The notes beneath the pieces were generated by a model. That model made no database searches and had not been told where the DNA came from. It saw only the letters and a list, made by a program, of their open reading frames with translations. Both the position numbers and the translations under genes were made by a program. From an uncultured Chloroflexia bacterium (lineage in GTDB: Bacteria; Chloroflexota; Ktedonobacteria; Ktedonobacterales; JADMIN01): a stretch of 28,394 bases of DNA. The stretch covers positions 1 to 28,394 of the forward strand of contig CAVRAI010000017.1 of assembly GCA_963718915.1 (NCBI GenBank), in the 5' to 3' direction. Shown here piece after piece: positions 1 to 21,126 of the stretch (its first letter is position 1; every line of letters begins with the position of its first letter).

Positions 1-281
1 GTTCTCCCTCGATGTAGTGAAATGCCCACCACTCGCCTCAAATCGGGCCCATCTGAAATTCTGAACCACCCAACCGGATTCCATGCGCAGGCTTCAGCCA
101 AGCAATGGAAGACGCAGCGAGCCGCCACGGCGAGTCCGTCATGGGCAAGGAAGAACAGACGTCAACCAAATGCAGAGTCATCCCCGCCTCGACCCTGCCA
201 ATCCGGAACATGAAAAACAACCTTCGGCGCTCGACTTGGCGTATCTGCGATTACTAATAGTCCTAGCTTGCCCAGTGCCCG

Positions 282-290
282 TGATATAGT
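282..290 (+). promoter_or_regulatory. putative extended -10 promoter element (TGATATAGT)
   Basis: TGnTATAGT matches the extended -10 consensus about 60 nt upstream of the ATG at 350. No convincing -35 box. By-eye match only. Confidence 0.2.
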
Positions 291-349
291 GGGCGTGGGG
301 AGAGTGGGCCGTGTCCCGCTAGCAGCAACCTACCCAAACTCGTGAGGGG

Positions 350-490
350 ATGAGCAGCAACATCACAGCCCTCACCTTGCGAGAGGGTCTTCCTGATGTC
401 CAAAGAAACGGAGCAACGTCTCTTCAATCTGTGACGGTTCTCATCGGACTCACCACCCTGATTGTGACGCTGATCCAGTTGACTCACTAA
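350..490 (+). CDS. 46-aa peptide with a C-terminal hydrophobic helix (MSSNITALTLREGLPDVQRNGATSLQSVTVLIGLTTLIVTLIQLTH); type I toxin- or holin-like small membrane peptide, hypothetical
   Basis: ATG-to-TAA ORF below the 60-aa cutoff of the ORF track. A GAGGGG purine tract sits immediately upstream, closer than ideal for an SD. The ORF is followed 15 nt later by a strong intrinsic terminator on the same strand. The hydrophobic tail VTVLIGLTTLIVTLIQL is long enough for one TM helix. Confidence 0.3.
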   Translation: MSSNITALTLREGLPDVQRNGATSLQSVTVLIGLTTLIVTLIQLTH

Positions 491-504
491 TCCGGGTCAC
501 AGCC

Positions 505-538
505 AGCCAGGGGGTAACTCCTCTGGCTCGTTTTGTTT
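505..538 (+). terminator. rho-independent terminator (9-bp GC-rich stem, 6-nt loop, TTTTGTTT tail)
   Basis: AGCCAGGGG (505-513) pairs with CCTCTGGCT (520-528), including one G-U pair. The loop is 514-519 and the T-tract is 531-538. The T-tract is present only on the + strand. Confidence 0.45.
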
Positions 539-573
539 GCCTGACGCCATTCTACCGCACTGCACAACTAGCC

Positions 574-813
574 CTATGCCGCCTGGAATGCCTTTGACGC
601 ATATAGGAAGGCTGTCACATACGCCTGGAACACACGCCATCCCTCACGGCAAGAGATGCCTCTTTTCAATTCCTCCACAAACATCGCTGCTAACCCTGTT
701 GCAGTCTCGTCTTCTGGTGCGTCTGGCAGTGTTCCATCCACCACATCTCTCCCAGCCGCAACCCACGCCTCCGCATCGGCTAATAGACACAATTGATCGA
801 GTTTGGATGCCAT
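574..813 (-). CDS. hypothetical acidic 79-aa protein
   Basis: ORF-track entry. On the minus strand the ATG is preceded by AAAGGAGGG with 8-nt spacing, a near-ideal SD. The composition is protein-like (helical, acidic), unlike neighbouring R/P/S/C-rich ORFs. I recognise no family. Confidence 0.5.
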   Translation of the reverse strand: MASKLDQLCLLADAEAWVAAGRDVVDGTLPDAPEDETATGLAAMFVEELKRGISCREGWRVFQAYVTAFLYASKAFQAA

Positions 814-987
814 CAGGTCTTCCCTCCTTTGCTACATCTGCCCCGCACAACACGACGCCCTACGAGACGGTGTACCTGATGTTGTGAAAGAAAGCAAGTA
901 GACAAAGATATTACACCAAGCCCACTGGAAAACCCGATAGCACGCAGGTTTGGCGAAGGTGGTTAGTGAAGGAAGAGCATCTATCGA

Positions 988-1238
988 GAGGTTCAAGAAG
1001 GATAGCTGAACCTGGCGCGGAGGTTGGGGACCTCTTGATAACCTCACGAGAACCTAGCCGGTAGTTCTCATACCTTCTTCACACCTTCCCCGCACGTCTC
1101 TCGGGGTCTCGGAGAGGTTGCCTGGAGGTTGCGATAGCCTTGATCTTTACCTCATCTTCTGTCGAGGTTTCATCGAGGTTTCGGGATGTTTCTGCACTCT
1201 TTTTCGATGGTCCTATGAGGTTGCCAAGAGGTTGCCAG
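988..1238 (+). repeat. iteron-like array of GAGGTT(G/T)C repeats: three tandem 11-bp pairs plus solitary copies
   Basis: Pair 1: GAGGTTGCC 1114-1122 and GAGGTTGCG 1125-1133. Pair 2: GAGGTTTC 1164-1171 and 1175-1182. Pair 3: GAGGTTGCC 1217-1225 and 1228-1236. Solitary copies are GAGGTTCA 988-995 and GAGGTTGG 1020-1027, with an inverted AACCTC at 1040-1045. Period within pairs is exactly 11 bp, and pairs are about 50-53 bp apart. Confidence 0.65.
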
Positions 1239-1772
1239 CCACGGTGATACCAGGAATGGACCTCCAAGAACCTACCGAAACTACGCAAGAACATGCATGT
1301 ACTACGTGACACACATCACCAGAACGTAGAAGCGAGTCAGCTAGTCCTTCCCAATCTTGCTGGCTACCTCCCCTGTGTCTTGTGTACACTTTGTGTGGTT
1401 CTCGCTGCTTCGGATGTGCTTATTGACTATCTCATACTTCAACTAAACCGTGATTAGTAGCAGTTCCAAATGAGTACTTTCCGTGAGGCAGGAGACGTGG
1501 CCAGCAGCAGAAACAAGGTGATGCGTCGGCGCTCAAGTGGGAGGGTGACGTGGCGAGGTAGTCCCTACTAAAAATCGCCGAAACCCCCAACTTTGCTGTT
1601 GCTCCGATGGGACCGTGTGTCGATTGAAGGTGGGACGGCGAAAGATGCCGTAGCCGACTCCAACCCCGGTTCTTTCTGCACCACCACCCGTGCCACTTAG
1701 CCCTACACCTACACCTTCTCCCCTGCCAAGGTTGCGGTGGCCACTCATAGGAGTAGGTAGTGAATCCTGTCC

Positions 1773-2108
1773 CTAGTACCCAGGCCCAGCCACATGCTCG
1801 ACGACAAAATCTATCATCGGTTTCTTAGGCTTTCGGCTTGGGGGTGTTGCGCCCGGCTCGCGCGCCAGCACGGCATCTACCAACACTCCCAGCGTTCTCA
1901 GAGATTCTCTGGTCACCACCGCGCGGAACTGGCTGTGTCCGTACCACTCAAGCAGCTTATATGGGTCTGGTTTGGCATATGGGTTGTGGTGATCAAGATC
2001 AGGGCCGGTAATAGGTACAGGTTCTGGAGTCGTCTCTGCCCCCAGCTTCTTCCCTTTCAGGTCTTCAAGCTCAGTGTATCGTTCACGTAGTCTTCGACCC
2101 ATCTCCAC
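1773..2108 (-). CDS. hypothetical 111-aa protein; last gene of the Mrr-ParA operon and a possible ParA partner or DNA-binding adaptor
   Basis: ORF-track entry with a GTG start 2 nt after the stop of the preceding 39-aa ORF, so tight operon packing. It has a basic N-terminus (GRRLRERY) and a basic patch (PSRKPKKP). No recognisable family. Confidence 0.45.
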   Translation of the reverse strand: MEMGRRLRERYTELEDLKGKKLGAETTPEPVPITGPDLDHHNPYAKPDPYKLLEWYGHSQFRAVVTRESLRTLGVLVDAVLAREPGATPPSRKPKKPMIDFVVEHVAGPGY

Positions 2109-2110
2109 AT

Positions 2111-2230
2111 CTAATGGAAGCCATTATTTGATATTTCAATCGCTGCTGTCGATGCCGCATCTTTGTCTGTCGCATCGATGGCATGTAATAACTGCTCGTT
2201 CGCTAGCTTCTTTCGTTGAGCAAAGGTCAT
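2111..2230 (-). CDS. hypothetical 39-aa ORF (MTFAQRKKLANEQLLHAIDATDKDAASTAAIEISNNGFH)
   Basis: Hand-translated ATG (2230-2228) to TAG (2113-2111), lying between the ParA tail and the 111-aa ORF. No clear SD. It is below the ORF-track cutoff. Confidence 0.2.
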   Translation of the reverse strand: MTFAQRKKLANEQLLHAIDATDKDAASTAAIEISNNGFH

Positions 2231-2261
2231 CGGACGAGTACTGATTGGTCGTGTTGTTCAC

Positions 2262-2423
2262 CTACTTGGCATAGTTTAGTACCTCCTCGGCGAGCGCGCT
2301 GTAAGCTTTGGCTCCATTGGTTCCCGCACCAGGCTGCAACATCTCCAACTGATTGTCGATTGGGACGCGGTGTTCAAGTATTCGGCCACCATTCCGCACG
2401 ATCATCGGACTCAGGCTATTCAA
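2262..2423 (-). pseudogene. out-of-frame C-terminal segment of the ParA domain (...SLSPMIVRNGGRILEHRVPIDNQLEMLQPGAGTNGAKAYSALAEEVLNYAK)
   Basis: Hand translation of the frame shifted by one relative to 2444..3571. It gives the canonical ParA/Soj C-terminus: an (I/V)-R-N segment and a GA-x-AY-x-x-LA-x-E-(V/L)L ending. The frame stays open back across the annotated stop to the C6 run at 2469-2474. Confidence 0.6.
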
Positions 2424-2443
2424 TACAACCTCCTTTGATAGCT

Positions 2444-3571
2444 CTAGGTTATCCCAATGAGTGATAAGCCCCCCATAAAGTCCGCCTCAGTCCCCATAAG
2501 CGCACTAACCGTCCTGAGTGTCGTTAGCATATTCCTTGTACCTGCCTCAGACGACCTGCGAGGGCGCAACGGCGCAATCACGTACTCGGCGGCACACAAC
2601 CCACTGCGTGTAAAGACTGTCATAGCTGGAGGTGTGTCGATAATAATCCAATCAGGCGGCCCTCCCAAACTAGCGATCTGCCTAGTACAAATCTTATGAA
2701 CATCCTGAACGAACTGCAATTCAACATTCGGACGACCGTTGCCGCCATAGTCACGTAGCGTAAGGAATGGGTCTGCGGGGATGATGCTCAGGTGATCAGT
2801 CGCGGTTGGCGTGATCAAGTCCACGAGGTGCCGCTCACCTGCAAAGTAGTGGGTGATATTGGGAAACAGTTCACCTTCAATCGTTCGTTTCTCTACTTGA
2901 TCAGGTAGACATCGCTCAGTCAGGTTTCCTTGTCCATCGAGGTCAATGAGGAGAACTCGCTTACCATATTTCTTCGCCAATTCAACACCCAAGTAATATG
3001 CTGTCGTTGTCTTACCTACCCCGCCCTTGTTGTTAGCAATAGTGAGAATCCGTGTGTCGCCAACCCGACGCGGGCGAACACTTTCTCTCCCAGCAAAGTG
3101 CTCTGGCGAAATCGTGGCGATGGTCTCTTCATCGTCATTCCGCGAGTTCCTCACATAGTCGATGTAGCGCACAAGCTGCATTCCGTTCATCAAGTAGACG
3201 CGCCGTGCCCCAGTTTCAGCCATTTGGTGAGCGGCCTTATTGAAGTCGCTGGTTGTGATCACAAACGGTTTTGCGCCTGCCCGGTCAACGGCTGGAGCGC
3301 CTCGTACTCCTCTGATGGTTGACGTAGTTACCAATTGTTCGGGAGCATAACGTTTACACTCAATCCCAGCGACGATACGATTGCTTCCCCGCGAGCGAAC
3401 CTCCAAGTCCACTCCTCTGAGAAAGTGCAACCCAACCACCCTAGTCTGATAACCAGCCCGGCCCAATACATACGCAACGAAGCGCTCGAATTCCTTTGGG
3501 GTCAAGGCATATATCGCTTCCACTGTGGGCACTTTGAATAGCGCCGCAAATTTATCTAGTTCGGTTGGCAT
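2444..3571 (-). CDS. fusion protein: N-terminal Mrr-type restriction-endonuclease (PD-(D/E)xK) domain plus a ParA/Soj-family deviant Walker-A ATPase, C-terminally truncated by an apparent frameshift
   Basis: The N-terminal half carries FERFVAYVLGRAGY, GVDLEV, GIECKRY (D...ExK) and FVITTSDF, matching the Mrr_cat pattern. The C-terminal half carries ILTIANNKGGVGKTTT (deviant Walker A), VLLIDLDGQGNLT (A') and WIIIDTPP (Walker B). Third codon positions are more A/T-rich than in the rest of the window. Confidence 0.85.
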   Translation of the reverse strand: MPTELDKFAALFKVPTVEAIYALTPKEFERFVAYVLGRAGYQTRVVGLHFLRGVDLEVRSRGSNRIVAGIECKRYAPEQLVTTSTIRGVRGAPAVDRAGAKPFVITTSDFNKAAHQMAETGARRVYLMNGMQLVRYIDYVRNSRNDDEETIATISPEHFAGRESVRPRRVGDTRILTIANNKGGVGKTTTAYYLGVELAKKYGKRVLLIDLDGQGNLTERCLPDQVEKRTIEGELFPNITHYFAGERHLVDLITPTATDHLSIIPADPFLTLRDYGGNGRPNVELQFVQDVHKICTRQIASLGGPPDWIIIDTPPAMTVFTRSGLCAAEYVIAPLRPRRSSEAGTRNMLTTLRTVSALMGTEADFMGGLSLIGIT

Positions 3572-3680
3572 AGAGTTCGGCGTCCCTTCTAGAGATGTGC
3601 TATTCGCGACTTGTACAAAATAAATGTCAGATTGGTGTTTGCGGTTTGCCGCCCTGGCTTCCTGCTTGTAGTGCCCTTGA

Positions 3681-4205
3681 CTACTTCGGGATTCTTATTA
3701 AAGGTATTGAGTTACTGCCTTTCCATCTGTGTTGTGTCATCCCTGCGTCTGCCATATGAAACGTTCCCTTGTTGAATGATATTCTGTACCGACCAGACTC
3801 CATAGTAGTGGTTTGGGTTCCAGGTGTCAATCGGGTTAGGAGCAGGTCAATACATCCGCCGTCTTCTTTACGTGCAAAGAAGCGTTGCGTGAAAGTCGCG
3901 ATGAAGACTATTTCGATCAGCGGGCCGACGATGGCTTCGGCGGCGGCTAACGCTATTATGGGGGCATCGAGGGCCAATCCACCACCTTAGGAAGAAACAA
4001 CGTCCGTGAAACGATGTAACGCTGAATACAAATGCAGAGAGTGGCGAGTTGATAGTATCGTGGACACCTATTCCCCAAACGCCGGAGCCAAGCGCGAAAT
4101 AGGCCGCCGAAAAAATGCCGATGACGAGGATGTAGACTAAAAGACTGCGTAATGACTTGTTTCCGATTGTGAGAGGTGCTACACTAGTTGCGAGGTTATC
4201 TGCTC
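3681..4205 (-). pseudogene. remnant of a small polytopic membrane protein (possible two-TM channel-like protein) lacking a start codon and needing at least one frameshift
   Basis: ORF track 3681..3977 encodes ...LDAPIIALAAAEAIVGPLIEIVFIATFTQRFF (TM-like). Hand translation of another frame upstream (about 3985-4205) gives SLRSLLVYILVIGIFSAAYFALGSGVWGIGV...SPLSAFVFSVTSF with no ATG, GTG or TTG start. The two parts join only through a frameshift near 3975-3990. Confidence 0.3.
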
Positions 4206-4277
4206 AGTGAGGCGCTGAGTCATCAATTGATTACAGCCTCTCACCAGATGACTGCGTTAAAATGTAGACGTGTCAGC

Positions 4278-4422
4278 TTGCCTCTAGCTCAATTGGCAGA
4301 GCAGGTCTGAGCCGGAGTTCAACGCAGGCGAGAGACGATGTGGGACAGCGCGCAAGTAGCCGATGTCCCACGACTGACTCTTAATCAGCGGGTTGTCGGT
4401 TCGAGTCCGACGGGGCTCACCA
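4278..4422 (+). tRNA. tRNA-Lys(CUU)-like gene interrupted by a ~69-nt insertion (4305-4373) in the 5' strand of the anticodon stem; possibly a pseudo-tRNA
   Basis: - 5' part: TA, then D-arm GCTC-AATTGGCA-GAGC, then A-G (4285-4304).
- 3' part: CTGA, loop CTCTTAA, TCAGC, variable GGGTT, T-arm GTCGG-TTCGAGT-CCGAC, acceptor GGGGCTC, discriminator A, encoded CCA (4374-4422).
- Removing 4305-4373 gives a perfect GCTGA/TCAGC anticodon stem and U33-CUU-A37.
- The 5' acceptor strand TTGCCTC pairs at only 5 of 7 positions; positions 1-2 are unpaired. Confidence 0.5.
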
Positions 4423-4447
4423 AACACCTCAAATCGCTATAAGGTTT

Positions 4448-4483
4448 GGCCTCTTGCGAAACAGCAAGGGGCCTTATCTGTTT
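4448..4483 (+). terminator. intrinsic terminator downstream of the tRNA-like gene
   Basis: GGCCTCTTGC (4448-4457) pairs with GCAAGGGGCC (4464-4473) as a 10-bp stem with one G-U pair. The loop is GAAACA, followed by a TTATCTGTTT tail. Confidence 0.45.
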
Positions 4484-4615
4484 CCGCAATGGGTATCGCC
4501 ATAGCATCCTCCAGCATAGTGACCGGAGCAAACCACCGCGCATCGCAAACAACTGCCCCCAAAATCATGCCGCGATGGTGAACCACTATTCACTTGTTTT
4601 TCATGTAGAGCCTCT

Positions 4616-5557
4616 ATGCTGACGAAGCGGATTTCTCCCGCCAACACGACATCTACCACTATCAGGATAACTATTGCGATGAAACGGCGCTCATCTAGAC
4701 ATCAGCGGCGGCAGCGGATAAGCGGTCTATCACTGCTCGCACGATTGGCACGGGAAATCGCCTATGCCACCCAGGCAATCGTCAAGACCCGGACGTTCGT
4801 CTATCCACGCATGGTATGGCGCACACTGACCAGACCCCGCCTCTCCCCTGGCACGATACGATTGCCATTTGGCCGCATACGCTATGTGGATGCTGACTCA
4901 CTGCGAACCACCTACCACCAGATTTTTGTACAGGGTATCTATCAGGTGGATGGGCTGGGCGACGCGCCAACAATTATTGACTGTGGCGGCAATATTGGTT
5001 TGAGTGTGATCGCGTTTAAGCGAGACTATCCCCAGGCGCGCATTCTGGCCTTCGAGGCCGATCCAGCGCTGGCCACTCTGCTGCTCTGGAACATCAAGAC
5101 CCTGGGTCTGACCGAGGTTACCGTCGAGGCGAAGGCGGTGGGTGGGGTCAATGGTCAGGTGTTATTTCAGCCCGATGGCTCCGTTGATGGGCATGTCGTC
5201 GCGTCACCTGGAGCAGCGCCACAGGCGACGGCGATCAGCGTACCAGCAGTGCGCCTCAGTGAGATGATCAATGGGCCAGTGGACCTGCTGAAACTGGATA
5301 TCGAGGGGAGCGAGTATGATGTCATCGCCGACTTGAGCCAGAGCGGTCGGATCACCCAGGTGAAGACGCTCATCTGCGAGGTACATGGCAATCAATCCAC
5401 CCAGCGTCAGTTCGTCGAGATGTGGCGGCAGCTGATGGAGGCGGGGTTCCAGCTCTCCCTCTTCAATGCGCGGACGGGTGGAGATGCGCGCGAAACCCCG
5501 TTCCCGGTGATTCCGGGCAAGGACTATGCCATCATCATCTATGCCTGGCGCCCCTGA
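4616..5557 (+). CDS. FkbM-family SAM-dependent methyltransferase
   Basis: IIDCGGNIGLSVIAFKRDYPQARILAFEADP (SAM-binding GxGxG-type motif) and LLKLDIEGSEYDV are typical of Methyltransf_21/FkbM. The start is uncertain, with an alternative ATG at 4679. The 3' end overlaps the convergent GT4 gene by 19 nt. Confidence 0.85.
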   Translation: MLTKRISPANTTSTTIRITIAMKRRSSRHQRRQRISGLSLLARLAREIAYATQAIVKTRTFVYPRMVWRTLTRPRLSPGTIRLPFGRIRYVDADSLRTTYHQIFVQGIYQVDGLGDAPTIIDCGGNIGLSVIAFKRDYPQARILAFEADPALATLLLWNIKTLGLTEVTVEAKAVGGVNGQVLFQPDGSVDGHVVASPGAAPQATAISVPAVRLSEMINGPVDLLKLDIEGSEYDVIADLSQSGRITQVKTLICEVHGNQSTQRQFVEMWRQLMEAGFQLSLFNARTGGDARETPFPVIPGKDYAIIIYAWRP

Positions 5558-6855
5558 TCGGCTTGTCCATCCAGCACGTCATGGTACGCCTGCTCGATAT
5601 GAGGCACGACGTTGCTCACCGTGTAGTTTTCAGCGCGATGAGACGCCTCCTGGCTCATACGCGCGCGCAATTCCGGGTCGGAGATAAGCCGCTGGAGCGC
5701 GCGGGCGAGATCCTCCGCGTCATTCGGTGTCACGAGGAGGCCCGTCCGTTCGTGCAGCACGATATCCGCCAGCCCGCCCGCTCGCGAGGCGACAACTGGT
5801 TTGCCCGCCGCCATCGCCTCGATCATCGCGATGCCAAATGGTTCGTCTGAGACCGATGCAAGCACGCCCAGCATACTCCGACGCCATGCCTCGATCACCG
5901 CATCGTGGGGCCACAGGTCGAATTGCATGACCCCTGGCGAGCGTTTGTAGGGTACCTCCGCGAATTGCCGACCGATGAGCACAAGCGGCGGCGCATCCTT
6001 GAGACGGGAGTACGCCTCCAGCAGAACTGGTACCCCTTTCTGGTATGTCTGGTCGCCAACAAACAAGATATATGGCTCTTGCGGGAGCAGCGCGAGATGC
6101 GGATCGGAGGTCTCTGTATCCCGGTTATCCACCAGATCATCCGGGACAAAATTGGGAATCACCCGAAACGGGGCCTTCGCCCGCACGAGGTCACATCCAC
6201 TCGCGACAGCATTGCTAACGGGCAAAAAGAGATCAACGGCGGTATGTTCGGCGTGCGCCCGGGTGCGTACTCCCGTGACGGTTACCGCGCCTTTTGCCCA
6301 TCCATACTGCTCGCGCGCGCACGCGAGACATTTCCGATATGCAGGGCCGGAGCACGGCGCGCCATGATACAACAGCGTCTTCGTCGCGCACACGAGACTG
6401 TAGTCGTGCAGGCTCAGCACCAATCGCGCGCCGCTTTTCGCGCTCAGCGGCACATAGGAATGGACAATCCAGTTGTGGGCATGGACGATGGCGGGGCGCT
6501 CGCGCTCCACGATTTCCCTGAGCGCGCGCATCGCGCCAGGATCGGGAAATGGCGGCAGATGCTGGCGCGCGGTCTCCTTATAGATCCCTGGTAGGCGCTG
6601 GGTCGTCGAGCGAATACGATACACCCGCACGCCGTCCTCGATGGCATATGGCGGCGTATCGGGCAGCCTGAGCGTTGCGACGGCGACATCATGGCCGCGA
6701 CTCACCAGTTGATGGCTCAAGTCATAGACATATCGTTCTTCGCCGCCGATGATTGGATGATAGAACTGCGCCAGCATCAGAATGCGCACAGGCAAACTCC
6801 CTCTTCCAAACCTTCCATGAGCAGCGCGAGCTACGCATTCATACAGCAGCGACAC
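5539..6855 (-). CDS. family 4 glycosyltransferase (GT4, GT-B fold)
   Basis: N-terminal RILMLAQFYHPIIGGEERYVYDLSHQLVSRGHDV and C-terminal SDEPFGIAMIEAMAAGKPVVASRAGGLADIV (E-x7-E region). The more likely start is the GTG at 6789, preceded by GAGGGA with 8-nt spacing. Confidence 0.9.
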   Translation of the reverse strand: MSLLYECVARAAHGRFGRGSLPVRILMLAQFYHPIIGGEERYVYDLSHQLVSRGHDVAVATLRLPDTPPYAIEDGVRVYRIRSTTQRLPGIYKETARQHLPPFPDPGAMRALREIVERERPAIVHAHNWIVHSYVPLSAKSGARLVLSLHDYSLVCATKTLLYHGAPCSGPAYRKCLACAREQYGWAKGAVTVTGVRTRAHAEHTAVDLFLPVSNAVASGCDLVRAKAPFRVIPNFVPDDLVDNRDTETSDPHLALLPQEPYILFVGDQTYQKGVPVLLEAYSRLKDAPPLVLIGRQFAEVPYKRSPGVMQFDLWPHDAVIEAWRRSMLGVLASVSDEPFGIAMIEAMAAGKPVVASRAGGLADIVLHERTGLLVTPNDAEDLARALQRLISDPELRARMSQEASHRAENYTVSNVVPHIEQAYHDVLDGQADQGRQA

Positions 6856-7097
6856 CCGTTAACGGCGCATTGCTTGAGGATACAGGGGATCACGCGGATG
6901 GTCAACTGCGCAGCGATGAGTACCTTATCCCTTCCGTGTTCAATCCGCATCACATGCGCATTTCATGCACATCACATCCACGTGGCGCCACGGCGCGCGA
7001 ACCATACCAGGAAATCAGGTTGACGTTACGGGGACCCTTCTCTACCGTCATTCTCTAAAGTGGAGTGGCGCTCTTCGCGAGGCGCTCGCTGGAACCA

Positions 7098-7121
7098 CGT
7101 GTGGGCGTGTGGGCGTGTGGG
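7098..7121. repeat. 3 x 8-bp perfect tandem repeat CGTGTGGG in a divergent promoter region
   Basis: CGTGTGGG at 7098-7105, 7106-7113 and 7114-7121. It lies between the divergently transcribed GT4 (start 6855/6789) and the 630-aa membrane protein (start 7209/7239). Confidence 0.7.
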
Positions 7122-7208
7122 AGCATCGGGGCAAAAGTAGGAAACAAGCCAACGCGAATGGTAGAGTGTGAGTGATGAGTCGGGCAGGAGTGGGGAGGGA
7201 CCTGAACA

Positions 7209-9101
7209 GTGTCATTGGAGGTGGCTCCCCAGGCGACAATGGAAGTCATTATACTTCCACCCTCAGGCCTCGGCGCGCGGACTCGTGTTGGCGGCTGGGG
7301 ATATCTGCCAGAGCTGAGCCTGCTTGGCGCTGTTGGGCTGCTGATGGTCGCCGTTGGCTATACCCGTTCGCGCGCCTCGGAAGGTTGGGGGGAACCACTC
7401 TTCTGGTGGGGACTGGTCATCATATTTGCCCCGATCGTCTTCCGCCTCTTCATTCTGCAGACACTGGACAGGCGCGAGCGACTCGGCTTGTTACTGGTAC
7501 TCCAGGTACTGCTCTACTTCGTCACGTCTTTGCAATATCCTCTGGCCTTCAAGGGATTCGATGAGTTCTCTCACTGGCGCACCGCGCAGGATATCGCGGC
7601 CACCGGCCATCTCTTCCAGGATAATTCACTACTGACCATCAGCCCTGTCTATCCAGGGTTGGAAATGGTCACCAACGCCGTCAGCGCTCTCACCGGCCTA
7701 TCTCTCTACCTTTCGGGGCGCATCGTGGTCGGCGTCGCACATCTGCTGCTGGTGCTGGCGCTCTACCTGTTCTTTGAGCGCGTGAGCGGCTCAGCACGGC
7801 TGGCGGGTATCGCGACGGCCCTCTACATGACCAATCCACATTACGTCTTCTTCGACGCCCAATACGCCTACGAGTCCATCGCGCTGCCGATGGCGATCTT
7901 CGTGCTGTTTGTGGCCGCGCGTGCGGTTCATCTGGGCGATCCACTACGCACACGACTCGGCTTCATCATCGCGGCCATCGTTGGCGTATGGACCGTGGTG
8001 GTGATGCATCATCTCACATCGTATGCGCTGATGGGCTTTCTGCTGCTGTGGATGCTCGCATCGCTCCTGCGCAGTCGTCGCACCTGGGATTCGGTCTCCC
8101 TGGGTATTTTCGTCCTCCTTGGTCTGGCTTCCGTCGCGTTCTGGCTCGTCTACACGCAGTCACGCGCGTTAGCCTATCTGACCCCTGTTGTCGCCGGTGC
8201 GGTGCTACAACTCCAGATGATTCTCGCAGGAGAGGCGGCGACAAGACAGTTATTTCACGACTATGGCGGCGAGGTCACGCCGTTGTGGCAGCGGATCGTG
8301 GCATCGGGGTCAGTTGGGTTGATTCTTATCGGGATCATGCCAGGGCTTTACTGGATCTGGCGCAAGCGCGTGAATGCGGGCATCCTCGCGCTTGCGGTCT
8401 GGGCGCTGCTCTACATTCCCAGTCAGGCCTTACGCCTGAGCCAGGCCGGCATCGAGGTGGCCGACCGCGCCACAGAGTTCGTCTTCCTGGGAATCGCCAC
8501 GGTGATCGCGATCAGCATGACGCAATTGAAGCCAGGCCTGCTGAACCGTCAGCTTGCCATTTGGGGATTGACCATAGGCATGACCATACTCTTCATCGGC
8601 GGCATTGTCGCCGGTTCTGGCCCTGACTGGGAGCGTTTCCCCGGCCCCTTCCTGGTATCCGCTGACGAGCGATCGCTCACCCAAGAGGGCATCTCTGCCG
8701 CGCAATGGGCCAGCGTCAGTCTGGGGTCGGGGCATCGTGTCGCCACTGACCGCGTGAATTCGATGCTGATGGCGACCTACGGCCGCCAGCGTGTGATTAC
8801 GAGCCTCGATGACAATCTTGACCCATCGCCAATCTTTACCTCGCTGACATTCGATGATACTGATCTTGGCATCCTGCGCGACGCGCATATCGAATATCTG
8901 GTCGTGGATCTGCGATTGAGTACGGGATTGCCGCGTCGAGGCTTTTACTTCAGCGAAATTGAGCCAGACGCGTTCAACTATACCGCTCCGATTAGTCGAG
9001 CGGCGCTTACCAAATTCGATGATCTGAGCAATGTTGACCGCGTGTTCGACAGCGGCAATATTGTCATCTACGACACCGGAGCGCTCCTGAATGGTTCGTG
9101 A
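7209..9101 (+). CDS. 630-aa polytopic membrane protein with a C-terminal soluble domain; putative GT-C-type glycosyltransferase or glycan polymerase
   Basis: At least 10 hydrophobic segments across the first ~470 aa, with an acidic loop motif FKGFDEFSHWRTAQD after the early TM segments, as in lipid-linked-sugar (GT-C) transferases. The C-terminal ~150 aa are hydrophilic. The cluster context is glycan synthesis. An alternative start is the ATG at 7239. Confidence 0.8.
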   Translation: MSLEVAPQATMEVIILPPSGLGARTRVGGWGYLPELSLLGAVGLLMVAVGYTRSRASEGWGEPLFWWGLVIIFAPIVFRLFILQTLDRRERLGLLLVLQVLLYFVTSLQYPLAFKGFDEFSHWRTAQDIAATGHLFQDNSLLTISPVYPGLEMVTNAVSALTGLSLYLSGRIVVGVAHLLLVLALYLFFERVSGSARLAGIATALYMTNPHYVFFDAQYAYESIALPMAIFVLFVAARAVHLGDPLRTRLGFIIAAIVGVWTVVVMHHLTSYALMGFLLLWMLASLLRSRRTWDSVSLGIFVLLGLASVAFWLVYTQSRALAYLTPVVAGAVLQLQMILAGEAATRQLFHDYGGEVTPLWQRIVASGSVGLILIGIMPGLYWIWRKRVNAGILALAVWALLYIPSQALRLSQAGIEVADRATEFVFLGIATVIAISMTQLKPGLLNRQLAIWGLTIGMTILFIGGIVAGSGPDWERFPGPFLVSADERSLTQEGISAAQWASVSLGSGHRVATDRVNSMLMATYGRQRVITSLDDNLDPSPIFTSLTFDDTDLGILRDAHIEYLVVDLRLSTGLPRRGFYFSEIEPDAFNYTAPISRAALTKFDDLSNVDRVFDSGNIVIYDTGALLNGS

Positions 9102-19853: not shown

Positions 19854-21089
19854 CTAGTCGCCTGGCTTCCACGTCCCGAGGTGGCGTTCGAGGATAGCCA
19901 TTTGGGGACGATCCTGGCCGGTATTGGTGGGTTCAACGGAGCTGATGTCGCCATAAGGGCCACCGTTCCAGTACGTCCCGCTGATCTGATGCTGATCGAG
20001 ATAGGCGAGGAAGTTGTCGAGGACGACATCCCACCGTGGATCGTTCGTGGGCGAGCCGAACGTGGTCTGTGCGTCCCCAGACGTCCAGCCGCCTGGAATG
20101 CCGTACTCGCCGACATAGCAGCGGAAGCCATAGGCCTGACACCACTGCACAAAGGGGCGGACTCGATCTACGCCCACCATAGGATATGCGCCCTCGTCGT
20201 CGTAGCTGCCAACGTACTGGCCGGAGCCATCGTGATCGAAGTAGATATGAATCTCATACCAAAGGTTGTTTACCGGATCATGATAACCCCGGAAGCCGTT
20301 TTGAAGATCGTACCCCGTGTTGCTCTCGTCCTCGGGCATGACGATGATGGGTTTGCTGATATCAATTGCCCGAATCGCATAGATGGCCTCTTGAGCATGG
20401 ACAGGCCACTCGGTATCGCTATAAGGCTCGTTCATCAGGTCATAGGCCAGAACGCCAGCATTGCCACGGTAATGAATCGCGAGCTGCTGCCAGACATTCG
20501 AGAAAGCTTTAGCAGGCGCCGCGTCTGACCCGACCGCGCTTCCGTCTCGCGCGGGATAGATGCCATGGTTGATGAGCGTAAAAATCACACACTCGTGGCG
20601 CGCGACCGCTTCGGCGACCAGCAAGTCCATCTTGCCCAGGTAGGTCGGGTCTAGCGGCCCCAGGAGGGTGGGCTGCAGATGTTCCCAGAGAAGTGGCACG
20701 CGGAAGGTTGTAAGTCCCTTCCTCCTGTAGTAGTCCAGTTGGGCGGTGGTCGGGAAGGCATCTGATTGACCCCACGCGCTTTGCCATGCGCCGAACAAGT
20801 TGACGCCGCGGAAATAGCCGGTCAGCGAGGGTGTGGTGCGAGCAGGGTATGGAAGCAGAAACGTATCGGCCGCATTGGGAGTCGTGATGTTGGATGGCCG
20901 ACCGGTGGTTACGCTGGCGTATGCGGCATGTGATGGGATCCGCGTGAGGGACAGCGACGCGAACAATGCCTGCGCGAGCAGGAGCAGCCCAAGGTGGATC
21001 AGCAGCAGGCGAATACGCGCTGTGCTAGCCCGCAGATGTGGGTCCAACCGGGTTGATGTCGCCACCCTTGATGTCGCCATAGGGGCCAC
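19854..21089 (-). CDS. GH5-family glycoside hydrolase (cellulase/beta-glycanase superfamily) with an N-terminal signal or anchor
   Basis: Signal-like RIRLLLIHLGLLLLAQALFASLSL, the acid/base motif YDLMNEPYS (NEP) and the nucleophile motif CYVGEYGIPGG. The start is GTG 21089 or ATG 21080. Confidence 0.85.
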   Translation of the reverse strand: MAPMATSRVATSTRLDPHLRASTARIRLLLIHLGLLLLAQALFASLSLTRIPSHAAYASVTTGRPSNITTPNAADTFLLPYPARTTPSLTGYFRGVNLFGAWQSAWGQSDAFPTTAQLDYYRRKGLTTFRVPLLWEHLQPTLLGPLDPTYLGKMDLLVAEAVARHECVIFTLINHGIYPARDGSAVGSDAAPAKAFSNVWQQLAIHYRGNAGVLAYDLMNEPYSDTEWPVHAQEAIYAIRAIDISKPIIVMPEDESNTGYDLQNGFRGYHDPVNNLWYEIHIYFDHDGSGQYVGSYDDEGAYPMVGVDRVRPFVQWCQAYGFRCYVGEYGIPGGWTSGDAQTTFGSPTNDPRWDVVLDNFLAYLDQHQISGTYWNGGPYGDISSVEPTNTGQDRPQMAILERHLGTWKPGD

Positions 21090-21126
21090 CGTTCCAGTAT
21101 GTCCCGCTGATCTGATGCTGATATCG
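21025..21126 (-). pseudogene. 3'-terminal fragment of a second GH5 paralogue (YQHQISGTYWNGGPYGDIKGGDINPVGPTSAG*)
   Basis: Hand translation of the minus strand. It parallels the GH5 C-terminus DQHQISGTYWNGGPYGDISSVEPTN. At the DNA level 21070-21122 matches 19944-19996 at 51 of 53 positions. It has no start codon or upstream coding sequence, and it overlaps the 5' end of the intact GH5 gene in another frame. Confidence 0.55.

Follow-up and report, generated by a model that had tools for sequence, protein, structure and literature searches.

A tRNA-Lys(CUU) gene split by 69 nt in a Ktedonobacteria-like genome is most probably an attachment-site remnant

Introduction

An attachment sublocation centred on the anticodon of tRNA genes (the "A" sublocation) was reportedly described by Williams in 2002. 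An integrative element that uses a tRNA gene supplies a copy of the 3′ part of the gene and pushes the original 3′ part out to its far end; Islander counts 3760 islands that have a 3′ tDNA fragment, and 2083 of its attP sites are anticodon-centred (Islander, PMC4383910). In the Mycobacterium phage Bernal13, the sequence CTGACTCTTAATCAGCGGGT..., which is tRNA-Lys from position 28 on, lies ~100 nt from the annotated Y-integrase gene.

Interrupted or extended tRNA-like genes of other kinds are also known. Group I introns interrupt several bacterial tRNA genes (tRNA-Leu, fMet, Arg and Ile); they are at least 200 nt long, lie in the anticodon loop and have a P1-P9 core. Archaeal non-canonical tRNA introns are short inserts outside position 37/38 that can lie in a stem, are cut at a bulge-helix-bulge by the splicing endonuclease, and leave a restored cloverleaf on removal. 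The archaeal splicing endonuclease is not known from bacteria. Rsr binds YrlA and the other bacterial Y RNAs, which mimic tRNAs (Chen et al. 2014, PMC4201824).

Here we describe a split tRNA-Lys(CUU) locus at positions 4278-4422 of a 28,394-nt stretch of bacterial DNA (the window). Like anticodon-centred tDNA att sites and Bernal13, the locus has a core that begins at position 28 and takes in the rest of the tRNA through its 3′ end. It further resembles tDNA att sites in having a displaced 3′ fragment beside foreign DNA, a G+C shift at the boundary and, downstream, what is probably the original terminator; among related contigs, there is one occupied and one empty site. It differs from them in that just 69 nt separate the 3′ fragment from a 25-nt 5′ fragment, which it abuts exactly in tRNA numbering, and in that neither an integrase nor a regenerated full-length tDNA was found in the window, the body of the element being apparently gone.

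The resemblance to introns is more limited. As with group I introns, a bacterial tRNA gene is interrupted, but an insert of 69 nt in a stem is incompatible with a group I intron, and it has no Rfam match. With the archaeal introns the locus shares a short stem insert whose removal restores the cloverleaf; it differs in being bacterial (Chloroflexota-like), in its unconserved insert, encoded CCA and broken acceptor stem, and in having no bulge-helix-bulge that frames both junctions. YrlA and the variants from Herpetosiphonales described below likewise combine a tRNA-like body with extra structured RNA atop the anticodon stem, whereas the window lacks their module and an rsr gene and has a defective acceptor stem. 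We conclude that 4278-4422 is most probably a non-functional remnant, or att-site scar, of a tRNA-Lys(CUU) gene and not an intron-containing gene.

Results

Two perfect tRNA-Lys(CUU) pieces are separated by 69 nt

All features from 4278 to 4483 described here lie on the forward strand. When the locus was aligned to intact tRNA-Lys(CUU) genes, the left limit of tRNA identity fell at 4278-4279, where TT stands in place of G1 and G2; the upstream edge reads ...GGGCCTCTAGC in the intact genes versus ...cagcTTGCCTCTAGC in the window. The 5′ fragment (4280-4304) covers tRNA positions 3-27, namely part of the acceptor strand, U8, the D arm and positions 26-27. Read from the TT, the order is TT-GCCTC, TA, the D arm (GCTC-AATTGGCA-GAGC, 4287-4302), A26 and G27, which brings the piece to 4304. 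Intervening DNA of 69 nt (4305-4373) then separates tRNA positions 27 and 28. The 3′ fragment (4374-4422) covers positions 28-76 including CCA and runs CTGA-CTCTTAA-TCAGC, GGGTT, GTCGG-TTCGAGT-CCGAC and GGGGCTC-A-CCA up to 4422, with the anticodon loop CTCTTAA at 4378-4384 and GGGTT as the variable loop.

The 5′ fragment is identical to positions 3-27 of the intact gene at 25/25 nt and the 3′ fragment to positions 28-76 at 49/49 nt. Judged by sequence, the match of both pieces is far beyond chance. Neither piece carries a single point mutation, which implies that the event was recent or that the pieces have been preserved by something. No second copy of either tRNA half occurs in the 28-kb window.

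The original prediction, made from the letters of the window, had listed the canonical elements of a tRNA, and every one of them was confirmed at its coordinates when 4100-4600 was re-read. The same holds for the 69-nt gap (4305-4373) between the D arm and the anticodon loop, for the similar borders GGTCTGA and CGACTGA, for the TT at positions 1-2 that cannot pair with C72/T71, and for a hairpin within the insert at 4340-4371, in which GTGGGAC (4340-4346) and GTCCCAC (4365-4371) form a 7-bp stem with an 18-nt loop. A GAGCC is indeed present at 4309-4313 and, as had been proposed, could pair with the 3′ acceptor strand, but nothing comparable exists in the related loci. Downstream of the tRNA pieces, a terminator-like hairpin (4448-4473) with a T-rich tail is located at 4448-4483; a comparable hairpin follows the intact tRNA-Lys genes in related contigs, and the hairpin in the window is probably the gene's original terminator.

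Such an arrangement could in principle be an assembly artefact in which reads of an intact tRNA gene were wrongly joined to reads of an att site. Over 3.4 kb, 11 mismatches and 4 indels do separate the window from the Logan contig L053 (sample ERR11563127; 99.5% identity), which points to errors or strain variation in at least one of the assemblies. However, L053 matches the window exactly over 4230-4402, both junctions included, and since it is an independent assembly of the sample with the same arrangement, an artefact of one assembly is unlikely. A chimera would also not normally contain 69 unique bases between two short repeats. Taken with these points, an artefactual origin appears extremely improbable.

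The locus is not recognized as a functional tRNA gene

The check with tRNA models went against a functional tRNA: ARAGORN called no tRNA in the unedited window, and the Rfam tRNA model gave a partial match of 20.7 bits, confined to 4355-4411 and below the 29-bit threshold. Pairs 1-72 and 2-71 are mismatched, which breaks the 7-bp acceptor stem, and no promoter-like site was found upstream of the tRNA remnant. The minimum-energy fold of the locus is not a cloverleaf; GAGCCGG of the insert pairs into the T arm, and the z-score of the locus is only -1.6. The locus should therefore yield no mature tRNA, and a working tRNA-Lys(CUU) would need to be encoded elsewhere in the genome. Separately, the intron mode of ARAGORN returned only a tRNA-Gly(ccc) with a 57-nt intron, which we rejected as spurious.

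One reading offered by the original prediction was an unusual spliced or processed tRNA. The gene would then encode a functional tRNA-Lys(CUU) with a short intron in the anticodon stem, removed by an endonuclease and a ligase (e.g. RtcB) or by self-cleavage. In keeping with this, the tRNA elements are all intact and both exons are free of mutations; excision of 4305-4373 restores the tRNA as had been foreseen, ARAGORN then calling tRNA-Lys(ctt) with pairs 1-72 and 2-71 open; and the insert folded alone is more structured than shuffled sequence (z-score -2.8). On the other hand, the insert is missing from all ten contigs that share the tRNA 3′ half, four intact genes included, and the broken acceptor pairs and the lack of a promoter-like site do not fit a working gene. 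Rfam detected no ribozyme, group I intron or other family in the insert, either at the gathering threshold or at E ≤ 10. A search for bulge-helix-bulge motifs returned three weak candidates, about as expected by chance, none of which places both 4304/4305 and 4373/4374 in bulges. In addition, the boundary of exon 2 coincides with that of the att core defined below. A spliced or processed tRNA was thus unsupported in every test that was run, and we consider it highly unlikely. We attach equally little probability to a variant in which the locus would be transcribed from an unrecognised promoter and the insert excised or tolerated as an extra arm, to give a working or regulatory tRNA-Lys(CUU).

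Intact and partial copies define an att core from position 28 onwards

A metagenome scan with the tRNA 3′ half yielded ten related contigs. In four of them (L044, L045, L050 and L052) the gene is intact and uninterrupted, is called tRNA-Lys(ctt) by ARAGORN and reads GGGCCTCTAGCTCAATTGGCAGAGCAG followed by CTGACTCTTAATCAGCGGGTTGTCGGTTCGAGTCCGACGGGGCTCACCA. The comparison with orthologues that had been suggested along with the original prediction thus revealed related intact genes without the insert. The remaining six (L043, L046-L049 and L051) have only the 3′ part, with unrelated DNA before it, and ARAGORN finds no tRNA in them. Identity to the tRNA starts at G27 in L043 and L049, at C28 in L046 and L048, at T29 in L047 and at A31 in L051; in the window it starts at C28.

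Positions 1-115 of L043 are 100% identical to 1464-1578 of L045, a stretch of 115 nt that comprises the core and the downstream flank, while upstream of the core L043 has unrelated DNA as against the intact gene of L045. On this sequence comparison, L043 is an occupied site and L045 an empty one. The shared flank and the divergent upstream DNA imply that positions 28-76 serve as an att core for elements that would cross over in the anticodon loop. As the partial copies begin at about 27-31 and the tRNA-Lys sequence of Bernal13 at 28, what looks like exon 2 in the window starts exactly where the att core starts. The pair of occupied and empty sites is that of L043 and L045; the downstream flank of the window itself is shared only with L001, a contig of the same sample.

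The DNA 5′ of the displaced 3′ fragment is conserved over ~170-200 nt with 74-85% identity in four contigs (L043 116-310 on the reverse strand, L049 2800-2997, L046 760-952 and L048 1290-1486). Rfam searches of these four arms gave partial tRNA matches only, Pfam recognised no ORF in the conserved stretch, and Pfam and PHROGs searches of the arm-side ORFs of L043, L049 and L051 revealed no integrase or phage function. The arms of L043, L046, L048 and L049 presumably belong to one family of integrative elements, as integrase/excisionase sites or as a leader. A tRNA piece beside a full tRNA gene was also seen in L025, an Acidimicrobiia chromosome with an array of 13 tRNA genes (6278-7954, reverse strand), where the 5′ fragment of another tRNA (..GGTCCGTAGCTCAATTGGCAGAGCGCC) lies 36 nt upstream of an intact tRNA-Lys(CUU).

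The insert resembles the core-proximal part of an element arm

At the core, the insert ends in GTCCCACGA, and the other arms end in CCGTCCACTG, CCGTCCCCTG or CCGCCCCCAA. The arms of L043, L046, L048 and L049 are homologous to each other, whereas only ~7 nt are shared between them and the insert. A half-repeat, CCGATGTCCCACGA, at 4360-4373 abuts the core. The longest substring common to the insert and the attP arm of Bernal13 is the 12-mer CGATGTGGGACA (4336-4347); this length was reached in 2 of 5000 shuffles against the Bernal13 P arm, but the match was spotted post hoc, and as a sign of an att arm it is suggestive only. In a scan of IMG/VR, the 12-mer occurred beside a tRNA-Lys core only in Bernal13 itself, and scans of viral contigs gave no match to the 3′ half of the tRNA, to the hairpin of the insert or to the left junction. 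Alignment of the insert to tRNA was no better than that of shuffled sequence, and the same was true of the flanks. The insert is probably the core-proximal remnant of the arm of an integrating element.

An independent small insertion at 27/28, by a miniature transposable element, a REP-like hairpin or filler DNA, would make the match to the att boundary coincidental. It would agree with the strong hairpin in the insert and with the two tRNA pieces abutting exactly at 27/28 with neither overlap nor gap. However, the insert has no terminal inverted repeats, and there is no clean target duplication: CTGA recurs, but with two extra bases (GT) between. Both the target-site-duplication model of the left junction and microhomology at that junction (GCAG/GTCTGA), for which no clean case was found, fail on this extra GT before CTGA. 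Neither the window nor 344 kb of fetched loci contains another copy of the insert. Moreover, the point of insertion is the att-core boundary of four other contigs, and nothing would account for the missing positions 1-2 and promoter. We therefore regard an independent insertion as unlikely. It had been suggested earlier that the locus is the scar of a tiny insertion element; this is partly correct, in that the insert has the look of an element arm left behind, but it does not look like a small transposon, with neither terminal inverted repeats nor a clean target duplication nor further copies.

tRNA-shaped genes with an insert at the same position occur in Herpetosiphonales

Genomes were scanned for this D arm with the Lys anticodon loop 59-89 nt further on. 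The matches were mostly tandem tRNA genes, but they also included two Herpetosiphonaceae MAGs, L005 and L011. In both, a tRNA-Lys(CUU)-like gene has this D arm and an insert of 71-72 nt exactly at 27/28, and it lies in an array directly upstream of rsr. The arrays span 2828-3660 in L011 (rsr at 3716-5314) and 7605-8000 in L005, and similar tRNA-shaped arrays were found at 3743-3850 in L059 (rsr at 4001-5587) and at 3330-3985 in L060 (rsr at 4001-5599). The downstream gene encodes a Ro60/Rsr protein with TROVE and vWA_Ro60 domains.

The units of these arrays have acceptor-stem ends, a D arm and a T arm, and some keep Lys(CUU), Phe(GAA) or Gly(UCC) loops. All but one, a plain tRNA-Ile(UAU) in L011, contain a conserved ~47-nt module (CTTCYGCGCC..CCTC-loop-GAGGTGCTTGTRGGAG..CTTCG), which is located at 27/28 or in the D loop in some units and replaces the anticodon arm in others. 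The two helices of the module are 94% paired with two compensatory pairs, compared with at most 64% in slid controls. Herpetosiphon llansteffanensis and a further large contig also have this module 5′ of rsr. The units score 24-39 bits with the Rfam YrlA model, which is sub-threshold, and they resemble circularly permuted YrlA Y RNAs. They are probably Y-RNA-like tRNA mimics, in an array arrangement for which we found no account in PMC4201824.

Given the inserts of L005 and L011 at the very same position and their place upstream of rsr, the locus in the window could be read as a tRNA-shaped noncoding RNA of the Y-RNA type, in which the 69 nt would be a local version of the Herpetosiphonales module, itself probably a binding site for Ro60/Rsr. 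Against this, a profile HMM of the module (nhmmer) remained silent in 4305-4373 even at E ≤ 100, and the Rfam YrlA model had no match in the window. A tblastn search of the window with Rsr/TROVE gave nothing below E = 1, and the Pfam TROVE domain is absent from the scanned ORFs of the window. Whereas the Herpetosiphonaceae units have a perfect acceptor stem, that of the locus in the window is broken. A Y-RNA-type origin is thus exceedingly unlikely. The occurrence of 27/28 in both cases most likely comes down to a structural boundary that they have in common, namely the top of the anticodon stem.

The remnant lies at a compositional boundary

The G+C content rises at ~4500, from 0.50-0.54 on the left side to 0.57-0.65 on the right side. 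Immediately left of the remnant are ~700 nt without a convincing gene, then a fusion of an Mrr-type nuclease with a ParA-like ATPase (2444-3571, reverse strand; Pfam Mrr_cat and AAA_31/CbiA) and then another 1.7 kb; this fusion is the only gene found in the left 4.3 kb. It is 375 aa long in the window versus 436 aa in L053 (832-2142), as in P0121 (100% identical, 436 aa), and the shorter version reflects either indel errors or a frameshifted pseudogene. Searches of the ORFs of 1-4300, the 4.3 kb of presumed island side that the window contains, revealed no integrase domain; the window has indels relative to L053. Region 1-1772 has no ORF longer than 116 aa, no Pfam or Rfam match and no similarity to the fetched loci, and Pfam and PHROGs searches of the small ORFs of 1-1770 revealed no integrase and no phage function. 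The 28-kb window also contains no second full-length tRNA-Lys(CUU), and the island would run past its left end.

The contigs L054-L056 are homologous to the window only over 1773-3593, the homology of L054 and L055 stopping at 1773. The Mrr-ParA family is very abundant in Ktedonobacterales, with more than 3000 matches. In L054, a 572-kb contig, a tRNA-Lys(UUU) gene (5472-5546) with its own terminator is located 455 nt upstream of the Mrr-ParA orthologue, and no repeat of this tRNA gene was found within 13 kb. The orientation of Mrr-ParA relative to the tRNA is opposite in the window (CUU remnant) and in L054 (UUU gene). ARAGORN also called an 83-nt "tRNA-Asp(atc)" in or near a methyltransferase gene of L054 (12616-12698, reverse strand) and L055 (6976-7058, reverse strand); these calls are probably false positives.

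To the right of the remnant, an FkbM methyltransferase gene is followed by a long polysaccharide-synthesis cluster. None of 16 loci with homologues of this methyltransferase has a tRNA-Lys(CUU), and homologues of both flanking blocks occur elsewhere without this tRNA gene. Named homologues of both neighbour genes come from Ktedonobacterales or Chloroflexota MAGs. Further right, direct repeats at 19914-19996 and 21025-21122, 1.1 kb apart, share 54 nt at 96% and an adjoining 40 nt at 75% identity; they lie within or beside ORFs of the polysaccharide cluster and probably represent paralogous segments of genes.

These data are best explained by an att scar that marks an island boundary in the genome of a Ktedonobacteria-like bacterium. 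This agrees with the first reading of the original prediction, a decaying pseudo-tRNA at an island boundary, which is supported by the att core, the G+C shift, the absence of positions 1-2 and of a promoter, and the intact genes in relatives.

Discussion

In the standard signature of an island, the displaced 3′ fragment is not accompanied by a 5′ fragment, unlike in the window, and this counts against the att-site reading. An integrative element with a tyrosine integrase, crossing over in the anticodon loop, may once have inserted at this site, and the 69 nt directly left of the core would be a leftover of its arm. A later deletion could have removed the body of the element together with the copy of the core that would have restored the gene, joining the old 5′ part to the remnant of the arm, and a further rearrangement would have replaced positions 1-2 and the promoter. 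We give this specific history, in which the 69 nt are an arm remnant left by a deletion, about even chances. It needs a breakpoint exactly at 27/28, for which the chance is roughly a few per cent. The low-G+C block left of the remnant is probably what remains of a mobile element.

A genuine short intron in the stem of a bacterial tRNA, if true, would be the first that is not of group I and would overturn the view that all bacterial tRNA introns are self-splicing group I introns. The evidence instead favours an ordinary kind of feature, the remnant of an integration site, in an unusual arrangement. For annotation, the locus is a caution that tRNA halves flanking DNA of an att arm can mimic an intron almost perfectly. 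If events linked to integrases can leave a scar of the arm at the core boundary, "split" pseudo-tRNAs would be a recurrent by-product of failed excision. As a marker, the remnant points to tRNA-Lys(CUU) as an integration hotspot in Ktedonobacteria-like soil bacteria.
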